Positions 2,549 to 63,332 of a DNA stretch of 64,000 bases are shown piece after piece. Position 1 is the first letter of the stretch; every line of letters starts with the position of its first letter. The position numbers and the translations under genes were made by a program. Under the pieces are notes generated by a model. It was given only the letters and a program-made list of their open reading frames with translations. It was not told where the DNA came from and did no database searches. The stretch spans positions 25,730,001-25,794,000 of the forward strand of contig OZ024747.1 in assembly GCA_964016885.1 (NCBI GenBank), read 5' to 3'. This DNA is from Eledone cirrhosa (Eukaryota).

Positions 2549-2829
2549 TGACTGTATATACACCTGTATAGATACAGAAACATATGCATGAGTACACATA
2601 TAACTAAAAAATATTTCTGCTCATGTTATAACCATACACGAGTTGAACATCTTTTTTTAGGTGAAACATGTGTTCTGAAGTATGGTTTTGTAATTGTGAA
2701 ATTAAATCTATACCCAACTCTTCATTTGGACTGAGTGCTCTGCCAACTTTGGATATAGCCTTTTTATTTTTCACTACACTATATATATATATATATACAT
2801 ATATATAAATATATATATATATATATATA

Positions 2830-5800
2830 GTTATAGGGAATGATCACAGCATATTCTATATTTTTATGAGATTGGCACCTTCCAGCCCTTTTAAAGTCGA
2901 GCACTCTTCAGTCAATAGGATTTTAAACCAATACTGAACATGGATAAATACCCTTTGGATTACTCTATCAAGAATATCCCAACACCTTCTAACATTTTCT
3001 ACACGAAAATGCTGATAGACAAAGTAGAGAAGGTCGTTAAAAGAATGAGATGGAAAGCTTTGATTCTCGATGGACACTTTAACATGGACTCTACGGAACA
3101 TTTTGATATCAAAACTCATAAATACCCGCAAAGAGTAAAAGATATGACCGCTTTTGAACTAGACTTAGATAATCTAATCAACAATATCAATTTTCGTAAG
3201 TACTCTAACCCTTTTCAATCTAAACTATCTAATGATATTTCAATATTCAAATCTTCTAAAAATAAGTTCATTTTCTCCGACAAAACTAAAAACCTATACG
3301 AAGTTAATAATAATTTACACGACCAAATATTAATAGATAACATCACCTCTAAATACCAAATAGCTAATATAAACAATTAAAGAATTAGCTGTTTCTTTAA
3401 AAATAGATAATAGGACAGAACAACTTGCTAAACGTAATGAATATATCACCCTTAAAGATCACAAACCTGACTTAATTAATCGTCCTAGTTGTAGATTAAT
3501 CAACCCTGCTAAGACTGATATCGGTCTTGCCAGCAAAAAAATTTTAAATAATATAAACACACACATTAGAAGTAAGTCTAAATTACTCCAATGGATAAAT
3601 AGCTCTTCCGTAGTACATTGGTTTAATAAAATTAAAGATAAAAATAGTTCTAGATTCACCCAATTTGACATTGTAGATTTCTAACCATCTATCACTCAGA
3701 CTCTTTTAACGAAAGCTTTAAATTTCGCTAGAAAGTTTACCAATATCTCTGATATTGAAGAGAATGTCATCTTGCACGCTAGAAACACTCTACTCTTTAC
3801 TGATAATGACACTTGGGTAAAAATATCTAACCCAGAGAGCCCATTCGATGTCTCAATGGGCTCTTTTGATAGTGCTTATGTTTGTGATTTAGTCGGCCTA
3901 TTCCTCCTACACACACTTAAAGAAAAATTCCCTAACCATATTTTTGGGCTTTATCGCGACGATGGTCTAATACTTTCCCATACCACCATAGGCCATAAAT
4001 TAGATAGATTAAGGAAAGACTTAATAAAAACCTTTGCTAGTTTTAATCTTAAAATTGCTATTGACACTAACCTTTCCAATGTTAATTTCCTAGATATAAA
4101 CCTAGATTTGCCTACTGCTTCTTATAAACCATACCATAAACCTAATGAAAATTTAAAATATATAAATAAAGGCTCTTGCCATCCTCCTATAATTTTTAAA
4201 AATCTTATCCCTAATATTAGCCGTAGGATCTCCACCCTCTCTTCCTCAGAAGCTATTTTCAATAAGGCATCCCCCTACTATAATAAAGCCCTCCAAAATA
4301 GCGGATTTAGCGAACCGATTAAATACATACCCAACTATACTAACTCTTTTAAACATAAAAATAGGAAAAGAAAAAATAATCTGGTTCACACCCCTAGCAG
4401 TTACAATTAATGTAGGCAAAAAATTCCTAGAGCTCTTAGATAAACATTTCCCTAGAACACATAGATACTATAAGATCTTCAATAGAAACTGTGTCAAAAT
4501 TAGCTACAGTCCCCCTATTAAATCTTATATCATCAACAACAAATCACCTAGAGAACATCAAAATTGCTCCTGTAGAGTCAAAAGTGAATGCCCATTACAA
4601 GGTAAATGCAACACCAAAGCCATTGTATATGCGGCTAAAGTGACAACCATCAGCAACAACCAACCAGCCACCAGTGAACGATATGTGGGTATGACACAAG
4701 ACAAATTCAAAACGCGTTATTACTCACATGTCGCATCCTTTCGACATCCAGAAAAAAGATTCACAACAGCTCTGGCTAGCAGAATATGGGATTTGAAAGA
4801 CCAAGGTATCCAATATAAATTGGATTGGTCAATTTTGAACCAATCTAAAGAATATGCAAGAGGAACAAGAAAATGCACACTCTGCATACATGAAAAATAT
4901 TGGATTTTACAAAACCCTAAAATCACCAAAGGCCTGCCTAAATACAAAGACAGAAATTTTCACCAGTTGCCCACACATGAAATCACACTTGCTTTCCAGC
5001 TCATATAAACTTAACTCACTTTCAGATACTTATCCTCCATAGGCTCTTATTCTTCACTTAAATTGTTCTCTTTAAAGACTACTCTTTCTGATTTACTTTC
5101 TTTTTAACCTTATTATTAATTTTATTTTAATTTTTATTTTTACTTCACATCCACCAGTAACCCCCCCCCCTTTATTCTTCTATTCACTTACCTAATATCT
5201 TCACTTTCCACTTTTTACTTCCCTATTTTCTTTACTATCTGATTACCCTAGTCACTTGCGTTTTCCACTCCAGATATTTTCTGTTATTTCGCAGCCAATT
5301 TTATATTTTTATATTTGTACTCATATATTCATAAGGCTGCTTTACACCCTGTATCTATGTGTCTGAGCGTCTTTATGTGTGTATACGTTCTGTATATGTA
5401 CACGAACGCCTCCGTATGTGCGCGTGCGTGCGTGTATATATATGTGTATGTATGTGCGTTTTTATATCTGTGTTTTTACATCTATGTTTTTTACATTCTT
5501 ATTTTTATGTGTGTGCGTGTAAGCGGGTCAATGTACGTGAATATGTTTGTGTGTATGTGTGTATATATGTATTGTATGTATGGGCGTGTATGTGTGCGTG
5601 TATATATATATATATATATATATATAGTCGCGTACGTACGTGTGATTAGATATACATGGGGCGATATGTATGTATATATATATGTGCATCCTGTGTATGT
5701 ATGTACGCATGCATACGCTTTTGTCTGTACGTATTGCGTGTGTATTTATATATATTTTTATAGATGTGTTTTTTATAGATATAGATTATCATTTTCTTTT

Positions 5801-6181
5801 TCAACTCATATTATATCCGTATTTGTGGTTACATATACACAAATATACTTGCCCTCATATATGTACTTACGCACACATTTTCACCATACACACGCATTTG
5901 TACATACATACATATGTACATTTGTGAGTGTATATACATACATATACACACACCTAACTATATTTCCTTATATTTTTTTATATATTTTATATGTCTATTG
6001 CATTACTTTTATTTATATATATATATTTTTTTTTTGCATTTCTTGAGGAGACTTTCCAAATATTTCACTATGTTTTATATTGCCTTGTCCGACGAACGAA
6101 CGAGGACGTTTCTTTCGTATTCGTCTTATTCGGGAAACCTCTGGTAATGAGGTAATTATATTGTATTGTTTATTATACATT
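2830..6181 (+). mobile_element. Near full-length, decayed Penelope-like element (Naiad-like)
   Basis: Broken ORF 2940-5042: YSIKNIP..KRMRWKA, LKDHK, QFDIVDF, MGSFDSA, YRDDGL, NFLDI. Linker CSCRVKSECPLQGKC, then GIY-YIG IVY..YVGMT..FKTRYYSH..CTLCIHEK. Hammerhead at 6089-6154; (TA)n on both sides. Confidence 0.9.
6089..6154 (+). ncRNA. Hammerhead in the PLE 3' region (U4C variant, weak stem I)
   Basis: CCGACGA-ACGAA..TTCGG-GAAA-CCTC(TGGTAAT)GAGG-TA^. Confidence 0.6.
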
Positions 6182-6471
6182 ATATATATATATATATATA
6201 TATACATAAAAAGGAACGATCGACTTTCGTCAAATCGGACCGAGGGAACAATGTTTCCGTTGGTCTTTCCAATTGCTAATACTATCTATCGGTCGCAACT
6301 CCAGGTAGAAGGAGCAACGTGAAATAAAGTGTCTTGCTCAAGGACATAACTCATCACCTGGTCCAGCAATCGAACTCACAACCTTACGATTGCGAATCCA
6401 ATTCTCTAACCACTCAGCCACACGCCTTTAATATATATATATATTTTTTTGTGGTGGGGGGGGGGAGAATG

Positions 6472-61450: not shown

Positions 61451-62031
61451 TATATATATATATACTTACACGTATACATACATAGATACTTACATTTAAG
61501 TAACTGCCGTACTAAGAGTGAGAAATGAAATTTCGTTTCATTCTATTCCATCTATATATATATATATATATACATACATATATATATACATATATATATA
61601 TATATATATATATATATATATATATATATATATATATATATATATATATATATATATATATATATATATTATATATATATATATATATATATATATATAT
61701 ATATACACATATATATATATATAGATGGAATAGAATGAAACGAAATTTCATTTCTCACTCTTAGTACGGCAGTTACTTAAATGTAAGTATGTATACGTAC
61801 ATACATATATGTATACAGACGTACAGTAGTATGTATATATATATACATACATGCACACATATATATATGCACGTATCGGTTTACCGAACATTTATTATAA
61901 TGCTCGGTTTGTTTGTAAACAAACAAACAGCCCGAATTACGCCGTACAGTGTTTAGAACACACGCTTTGTCCGTTCCCATGTCGATTCAATTTGGATTGC
62001 CTCGGAAACATAACCTTATTATGTAACAAGC

Positions 62032-62102
62032 TGTCTGATGATGTCACGGCACTGGGCGCACCGAACCGTGTGGCCACTGTTGTCATTGAAATATGTATCG
62101 CA
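62032..62102 (+). ncRNA. Minimal hammerhead; its 3' half recurs at 1-30
   Basis: TGT-CTGATGA-..-GAAA-TATGTA-TC^GCA. Confidence 0.55.
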
Positions 62103-63332
62103 CCATTATTATTAAAGGACTTTAACATCTGAAATTACTTCGCTTTCTTATTCGATATATACTCCGTCACTCCTATGTGGAAAAAGTACGTTGAGTGCTT
62201 GAATTGAATTGCATCAATATTTACCTTAAGTATACACACACACACACACACACACACACACACACACATATATATATATATATATATATATATATATATA
62301 TATATATAAAGGCTATATAAACCATATATGTGTGTATATGTATATATACACACTCTTGATGTGAAACTCATCAACCTGATCATTCTGCTGAAAACATTTG
62401 TCTTACCACATGCAATTGCAAGATTATTTCGAGACTTACTGTAGTGGCTTCTAGAAGAATATAGAATATTTACAGAAAACAGAAATACTACTACTAACTT
62501 TTCCTTCTTTGTTATTTATTTATTAAGTCAGGAGGAAGGGGCACTGTTTATGGTCTTTGCAGATCCTCCAAGACAGAATTCTCACGATTTTGAAAAAGCC
62601 AGATAAAACCACGGAGAGTTTTTTTTTAATATCCGTATATTAATAACATGTTATTCACCAGAGAATGCAGTGTCCTTCATATTTAGCATATGTCATTAGA
62701 TCTATTATTACTACCACTCATTCATTTATTTCACATATATTCGTGTATACATCCAAGTTACAAACATTTACATGGCTTCTAGCAATGGACGTTTTCCTGA
62801 CAAAATAAATACCCGCCAAAATTTAGATACACTCTTCTTATTACTTACCATCTTTGAAGAATATATTTATTTCCAATTTTCACGGGGTCAGCTAAATGTT
62901 GTGACAGAGACTCACATTGACCCTTTTTGTTCATGTTGTTCCATAGCAGAGCTCTTCCTTTTCGTGGACGTACCCATATTCCTAATTCTAAGATGATATG
63001 TAAAAGGAAGAAAATATAAATTAGTTGTTTCTCTATATGACCAAGATAACCACAACGGCGATGGGGACGATGGTAATGGAGACGACCAGTCCACCGACGA
63101 CGACGACGGCGGCGGCGGTGGTAGTGGTTTCTAGTTTAGGCACTAGGTCAACAATTTTTTGTGGGAGGTAAGTGAAAAGTCGATTATACGGGATTCAGGT
63201 CTTTGTGAGAGAGTAAAGGGAGTCGTAGGGTCACCGTTCTGACATACAGCGTATCTTGAATTTAAAAAAAAAAACCAAGTGGGACCCTTTCCTCTCCAGC
63301 TTGTAACATAGCCGATTTCTTGGAAAGAGATA

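Follow-up and report, generated by a model that had tools for sequence, protein, structure and literature searches.

What does a short motif of the form ACTC..GAGTRCT do in the DNA of the octopod Eledone cirrhosa, where it recurs just ahead of microsatellites? The stretch analyzed here (contig OZ024747.1, positions 25,730,001 to 25,794,000; 64,000 nt, hereafter the window) is AT-rich animal DNA, dense in microsatellites and short interspersed elements. A sequence-only reading of it had described the motif as a conserved 3'-terminal stem shared by unrelated elements, possibly a handle by which the reverse transcriptase (RT) of a Penelope-like element (PLE) starts copying. Our answer, to which we give a probability of roughly two in three, is that the motif is one of two bulged hairpins in the leader of PLEs of the Hydra clade, each of which likely binds the element's own RT-endonuclease, which would start target-primed reverse transcription (TPRT) 3-4 nt 5' of the hairpin, inside the RNA. 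The hairpin is conserved and covarying, it is doubled between a hammerhead ribozyme and the start codon, and most mapped insertion ends lie just 5' of it.

All eight sites of the sequence-only reading were found where it had placed them and on the same strands, and a ninth true copy, absent from its list, lies at 46766 (-). ACTC-N(10-35)-GAGTRCT has 12 matches in the window, compared with a mean of 0.84 and a maximum of 4 in 100 dinucleotide shuffles; they represent 11 distinct GAGTRCT sites, the match at 62169 being nested inside that at 62161. At 9 of the 11 sites a (TA)n or (CA)n array starts 28-65 nt 3' of the motif (actual distances 35-61), the background rate of such an array start in the window being 0.044-0.047 per position. 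The two strict matches lacking a TA junction, 13823-13846 (+) and 1451-1474 (-), the latter inside a short interspersed repeat, are probably due to chance or decay. The reported position of hammerheads upstream of the motif also holds, as hammerhead 3' halves lie 41-69 nt 5' of motif copies. The elements are unrelated to the extent that about six families are represented, but the copies at 6597, 46766 and 46821 belong to one family, and those at 2717 and 9272 look alike by eye. None of 98 Rfam matches in the window attained the gathering score, the matches being microsatellite-driven noise resembling microRNAs; a Pfam scan left the PLE reading frames unrecognised, and the output of a repeat finder was dominated by microsatellites, save for inverted pairs.

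Two broken PLE reading frames are present in the window, at 2940-5008 and at about 53881-55763, the second in a 5'-truncated element termed E1, and their RT regions are 34-62% identical to Hydra-type proteins. The RWK motif (as RMRWKA) and the change of DKG to DKT (as SDKTKN) were both found in frame 2919-3380; the corresponding region is missing from E1. Both open reading frames (ORFs) have a CxCX5C linker before a C-terminal GIY-YIG endonuclease domain and CxxC/CxH near the end, with, by eye, no CCHH. The window elements sit in (TA)n arrays, as expected for the Hydra clade, and hammerheads recognised from the sequence lie near their 3' ends, with complete cores in E1 and in two further elements, E2 and E3, and 3' halves in truncated inserts. 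The protein marks, the hammerhead, (TA)n targets, an inverted 5'-truncated partner and an optional tail are all shared with the Hydra-clade C-terminal endonuclease PLEs of PMC8557442. Judged by their protein marks, the window frames probably belong to the Hydra clade.

Relatives were retrieved by protein alone, with an alignment of 41 of 120 listed homologues as the query. This gave 91 loci, several of which align over the full length, namely 78 metagenome loci (from the best 80 of 452) and 13 contigs of prokaryote assemblies; a protein search of viral contigs found no Hydra protein. In the relatives the motif takes the form GCTC..GAGCACT (GCUC..GAGC-ACU in RNA), on the sense strand. For 62 leaders the sequence reaches 150 nt or more upstream of the ORF; of these, 34 have the strict motif twice, 16 once and 12 not at all, while the relaxed motif is present twice in 49, once in 10 and absent from 3. 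By comparison, the strict motif occurred once on the opposite strand in 3 of the 62 leaders, and coding windows gave 1 in 668. The two copies sit between the hammerhead and the start codon: copy 1 is 42-78 nt 3' of the hammerhead core (31 leaders), the copies are 55-83 nt apart, about 60 (38 leaders), and in 36 of 38 leaders the distance from the end of copy 2 to the ORF start is 10-32 nt. Since the window tails are 61-94 nt long and the hammerhead there lies 41-69 nt away, the window motif fits copy 1. Motif-bearing relatives have proteins only 42-63% like the query. The motif belongs to the Hydra clade, where it is a clade-wide and apparently undescribed cis-element; the retroelements themselves are of a known class.

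The six published Hydra consensus sequences (PMC8557442), inspected by eye, contain GCTC..GAGCACT in three cases, in one of them twice at the 5' start, and a variant in a fourth; two show no clear copy. In the available part of the supplement of that paper GAGTGCT or GAGTACT occurs at 22 places, none of them in the Hydra file, as follows from the use of GAGCACT by the relatives.

As an account of the structure, the pairing of ACTC with GAGT holds for the outer stem; the whole is a bulged hairpin and not a plain stem, and the loops that had been taken as unrelated hold a covarying inner helix behind a 2-nt bulge, with 23 of 24 positions paired in the eight window copies. The consensus consists of an RCUC/GAGY outer stem, a 2-nt 3' bulge, the inner helix and an unpaired RCU. 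For the covariation analysis 154 hairpin instances were picked by sequence match alone, 87 of them non-redundant. At the next three positions behind the bulge, 75% of cells were paired in 84 non-redundant hairpins, compared with 49% for shuffled partners, and 0 of 1000 shuffles reached 75%. Eight other placements of the bulge gave 29-47%, the best two being reached by 33 and 36 of 1000 shuffles, and chance matches from two viral-contig pattern scans, which served as a negative control, paired at 39%. The first inner pair was C-G in 43 hairpins and U-A in 32, and the bulge was UU, UC or UA in 78 of 87. The outer stem is nearly invariant and so shows little covariation, but compensation occurs there too: among 30 hand-picked rows, two of which were chosen for their U-A to A-U change (L083 and L085), the window families exchange G-C for A-U, and by eye G-C is replaced by U-A in both copies of L055 and C-G by U-A in L008.

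The two copies are not alike in every respect. In leaders with two strict copies the first inner pair was U-A in 16 of 25 copy-1 hairpins and C-G in 20 of 21 copy-2 hairpins. In L007, L046 and L055 both copies of one element share an identical departure from the consensus (GAGCTCT, GAGCGCT and TCTC/GAGA, respectively), which suggests a change in concert with the protein. In L001 (about 455-475) a TA array stands exactly at the second site of an otherwise complete leader.

Where insertions end relative to the hairpins was determined from rows with at least 93% identity over 50 nt and 15 nt of flank. Rows entering their own hairpin, TA-to-TA alignments and cross-family hammerhead matches were dropped or excluded, by which fitting ends of L010 and L068 were also lost. 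Of 21 same-family ends, 7 lie 2-8 nt 5' of copy 1 (tail-less) and 8 lie 3-7 nt 5' of copy 2 (tailed), seven of the latter at 3 or 4. Together 15 of the 21 fall within 0-8 nt 5' of a hairpin, 12 of these at -2 to -4, while 78 of the 353 TA-like sites in these leaders (22%) are beside a hairpin. As the ends fall just before copy 1 or just before copy 2, the tail consists of hairpin 1 plus the spacer, and the hairpin adjoining an end is outside that insertion; at the tailed junction of the relatives it is the second copy that adjoins and is left out. The 30-60 nt between motif and microsatellite in the sequence-only reading are therefore the spacer between two copies. The motif that it called 3'-terminal makes up the initial ~25 nt of the PLE tail and marks the tail-less end 2-9 nt upstream. 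The window elements, among which the same two kinds of end can be compared directly, are the following.

2885..2905 (+): hairpin 2 in the common form, GCCC/GAGC-ACU with one mismatch; the ATG at 2940 follows 34 nt on; absent from the sequence-only list
2940..6180 (+): broken element of Hydra type, almost full-length, with RWK, DKT, CxCX5C and C-terminal GIY-YIG, 43-62% to Hydra-type proteins
53860..56956 (+): E1 direct arm, 5'-truncated; broken RT and GIY-YIG frame, long 3' untranslated region, hammerhead core from 56767, hairpin, tail, (TA)n
56874..56901 (+): E1 hairpin in the copy-1 position; ACUC/GAGU, bulge UA, inner helix of 4 bp, then GCU
52140..53873 (-): E1 inverted arm, tail-less, 97% over 1720 nt; the arms match until 4 nt before ACTC, then (TA)n
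47177..47227 (both strands): minimal two-ended insert of the E1 family between TA arrays; inverted tail-less end 47177-47210 (-) and the last ~17 nt of the tail (+)
38521..38605 (-): E2 tail, with its hairpin at 38605-38583
38605..39191 (both strands): E2 inverted arms with hammerheads, 38605-38858 (-) and 38938-39191 (+), 98% complementary
62161..62234 (+): E3 hairpin (62161-62199) and tail, with the hammerhead core at 62035
1..82 (+): tail-less copy of the E3 family, 90% over 73 nt; ends 0-7 nt 5' of the ACTC position and continues into (TA)n
6597..6665 (+): family F hairpin (6597-6623) and tail, after a fold-back at 6471-6581 that holds hammerhead stem III
46695..46892 (both strands): fold-back of family F, both arms tailed; hairpins at 46766-46741 (-) and 46821-46847 (+)
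20712..20756 (+): tail-less family F copy between TA arrays, ending 5 nt before the ACTC position; compared by position, without a BLAST hit
9205..9332 (+): short insert flanked by TA arrays and truncated at the 5' end, with hammerhead remnant, hairpin 9272-9295 (1-nt bulge) and tail
2717..2779 (+): hairpin 2717-2739 with its tail; related, by eye, to the 9272 insert
42425..42518 (+): long-loop hairpin 42425-42467 and tail

Five tail-less partners in the window (those of E1, E2, E3 and family F, and the minimal insert) end about 2-9 nt before ACTC. The direct arm of E1 extends 83 nt past the point where its inverted partner joins (TA)n, so that its tail is 56874-56956 with the hairpin opening it, and the plus arm of E2 is tail-less and ends 2 nt before ACTC. 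For 56660-56955, public data from four runs show E1-family copies elsewhere in the genome passing into (TA)n behind 56874: two runs gave 52 and 2 such contigs, the two raw-read runs gave 269 and 223 reads, and in the latter two the change is also seen behind 56864-56866; the tailed end (56956) is at the edge of the mapped stretch. Because both the partners and the reads leave at or just before the motif, the motif opens an optional PLE tail. The 40 variants listed for 56660-56955 all lie outside ACTC and GAGTGCT. Both the mapped ends and the window pairs thus show two discrete 3' end points in the genome that differ by an optional extension. Hydra tails here are 55-94 nt long, compared with 30-40 nt in PMC8557442.

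The E1 frame gave 26-49% in tblastn to Hydra-type proteins and has the CxCX5C linker and the endonuclease CxxC and CxH. The loop of the E1 hairpin is nearly identical to that of the GCTC/GAGC hairpin of a relative, locus L026. The element at 2940..6180 has a degenerate hammerhead near 6090-6140 and an apparently tail-less end at a TA array. A minus-strand GAGTGCT at 2906 was considered as an inverted tail and rejected, as it is plus-strand GAGCACTC of copy 2 read on the opposite strand. Five hairpin families have no coding sequence in the window and may be truncated or non-autonomous; they agree with the relatives in the hammerhead, in the spacing (41-69 versus 42-78 nt) and in the form of the hairpin.

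Apparently the tail begins with one hairpin and stops at another, and the handle proposed in the sequence-only reading, although misplaced in its geometry and its junction, is indirectly supported as the best explanation. Binding of the element's RT-endonuclease to each hairpin in the RNA and the start of reverse transcription beside it are likely. cDNA synthesis would begin 3-4 nt 5' of the hairpin, inside the RNA, with the nicked (TA)n target annealed to the UA-rich bases just 5' of the hairpin, and the two copies would serve the two ends of a double-strand cut. Since signals in the leader define 3' ends and the adjoining hairpin is not copied, the template would be tandem or circular, i.e. 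a read-through transcript or one cut by the hammerhead and circularised, so that the 3' end is continued by a leader. In 17 of the 91 loci the end of one ORF is succeeded by a leader and then by another ORF, as would be seen in tandem arrays or collapsed assemblies. Stem-loops that bind an RT are well known from hepadnavirus epsilon, domain IVa of group II introns, the R2 3' untranslated region and the template-flanking stems of telomerase RNA; they are small, often bulged, lie near a start codon or template, recruit their own RT and fix the start of copying. None of these is doubled for two alternative ends, and a likeness in sequence to the present hairpin is not to be expected.

The mechanism rests on the Poseidon-clade PLE of Anolis (PMC11167929), in which two internal RT starts bound the tail, both strands of an AT-rich target are cut and extended, and the protein is predicted to be a dimer. 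The difference is that the Poseidon starts lie inside the ORF in an AC-rich stem-loop, with no conserved doubled signal named in the available text, whereas in the Hydra elements studied here each end has a covarying hairpin 3-4 nt 3' of it, within the leader. In Fig. S1B of that paper the sequence around the Poseidon start shows two occurrences of a short pattern, GGCC..AGCC..GACA, some 41 nt from each other, which may be a comparable double signal in a different clade.

Several observations weigh against this explanation. Six of the 21 mapped ends lie elsewhere, and the p of about 2e-6 for ends versus TA-like sites overstates the significance, as the ends are not wholly independent: some stem from related families, and four come from L082. 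The second hairpin was seen in the relatives and not in the ACTC families of the window, none of which has a full leader there. A non-consensus outer stem was found in 18 of the 87 hairpins, most of the changes not being compensatory, though several were mis-anchored by the scan. The hairpin is a weak one: complete tails gain no stability over shuffled ones (z from -1.8 to +0.8), and structure prediction recovers the hairpin in just 4 of 9 of them, which would suit a hairpin stabilised by protein, without proving one. As to which strand folds, isolated G-U pairs outnumber A-C by 5 to 1, yet folding slightly favours the opposite strand in 33 of 53. The Poseidon start region as printed in Fig. 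S1 of PMC11167929 lacks such a motif, and the in vitro result is transferred by analogy only.

The hairpin could instead act in DNA: the GIY-YIG endonuclease would recognise it in cDNA that is single-stranded or in donor DNA where it is extruded, and would cut next to it, so that an intermediate longer than one unit is resolved into ends with or without a tail. The equal or better folding of the opposite strand would agree with this, as would the TA-rich sites, which resemble the target, and the 5' ends of some near full-length copies, which also lie at a hairpin. Craig et al. (PMC8557442) credit the tail to endonuclease-mediated resolution, with no hairpin in tail or leader in the available part of their description of Hydra, and recognition by the Drosophila virilis endonuclease needed the tail (as cited in PMC11167929). 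We nevertheless consider a role in DNA unlikely, as both tail boundaries of Poseidon in vitro are RT start sites on an RNA template and the isolated wobble pairs lean, if weakly, to the sense RNA.

Ends at identical positions would also be predicted if the transcript were cut 3-4 nt before either copy, with ordinary priming at the new RNA end, and Anolis RNA-seq reads do end on both start sites (PMC11167929). In the Poseidon assay, however, a longer RNA 3' end left the product unmoved, which means that the starts are internal, and no nuclease is known to make such a cut; RNA processing therefore appears quite improbable as the cause. A third possibility is a role of the hairpins in translation or in self-regulation of the leader, the ends coinciding with them only through UA-rich patches that anneal to (TA)n. 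The closeness of copy 2 to the ORF and the AT-rich bases 5' of the hairpins fit such a role, and the hairpins may have one in addition. As a full explanation it is very doubtful, as 15 of 21 ends are beside a hairpin, at an offset of 3-4 nt, when only 78 of 353 TA-like sites are so placed. Chance matches plus shared ancestry of a few repeats, suggested by the shortness of the motif, by the two stray window matches and by the hundreds of chance matches in viral contigs, are refuted by the leader counts with their strand bias and doubling, by covariation across such distant proteins and by the end mapping; the enrichment in the window likewise tells against them, and they hardly merit further consideration.

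If the hairpins are copying-start signals, a further step is conceivable, which we put forward tentatively and hold to be rather doubtful than probable. A dimer of the element's protein might grip both hairpins of a single RNA, cut by the hammerhead and either circular or tandem, and prime both cut ends at once, one per site, the RNA serving as a ruler with two handles. In a single step this would give the inverted partner, the one-sided tail and unit-length copies beginning at their priming hairpin, and telomerase-like stutter on the UA bases beside the hairpin could lengthen (TA)n arrays. The 5' ends of four near full-length copies (L005, L012, L016 and L088) lie at or in a hairpin, and of the three with a mapped 3' end two match their own site, a sample too small for a conclusion. 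L034, L044 and L053 are, by eye, near full-length copies that likewise start at or in a hairpin. Hairpin-bound 5' ends hint at unit-length copies from a circular or tandem template. Among six inverted pairs examined by eye, four have one tail (E1, E2, the minimal insert and L082 6716/7122), one has two (46695-46892) and one has none (L082 2211/6020); one-tailed pairing as a rule was thus not established. In L015 (about 2609) a tail-less end runs into (ATTT)n, the array unit matching the last template letters, which may reflect target choice by microhomology or telomerase-like stutter.

Hammerheads in pseudo-long terminal repeats (pLTRs) of PLEs and in non-LTR retrozymes occupy the same region of the element (PMC4209133, PMC7229834, bioRxiv 10.64898/2026.07.22.740005), and a circular RNA template has been proposed (PMC4209133). 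The hairpin is distinct from these ribozymes, lying 42-78 nt 3' of the core, and the available parts of these reports name no RT-recognition element. No description of the hairpin was found in the literature searched; subscription papers and Repbase, mostly outside the scope of that search, could mention it.

Other features of the window were noted in passing. A TA-flanked fold-back at 57110-57476 has a hammerhead-like core and no hairpin tail on either arm, and hammerhead-bearing ends join (TA)n without a hairpin at 20352-20560, 60346-60549, 59871-59988 and 40172-40322, the first two being one family (83%). Broken RT frames (RVT_1) of the long interspersed element type, each flanked by TA arrays, lie at 17023-19305, with a PHD-like finger, and at 60463-61443. 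One short interspersed repeat family is very abundant (10886-11526, 27197-30580, 57708-58622 and others), a second has tRNA-like heads (e.g. 22795-22858), and 63334-63961 is a satellite of 20 copies of a 32-nt unit, 95% alike. Among the relatives, L079-L091 are Hydra-type animal retroelements inside contigs of bacterial genome assemblies, probably the result of contamination with host DNA.

The hairpin offers a diagnostic for annotating the ends of Hydra elements and their non-autonomous derivatives. As a covarying structure of 20-40 nt that lies 3-4 nt from both types of end, it lends itself to exact mutants, for which an assay exists in another PLE, and if portable it would be a handle for RNA-templated insertion tools. 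Should both hairpins be gripped by one dimer, they would provide a defined RNA recognition element for an endonuclease-bearing PLE, of which none was found in the literature searched, and a portable signal for two-ended DNA writing. The hairpins also bear on how Penelope-like RTs, the closest relatives of telomerase, choose their RNA and start internally. For about two decades the optional tail and the inverted partner have been known with no cis-signal to go with them, and the hairpin pair would explain this long-known tail.

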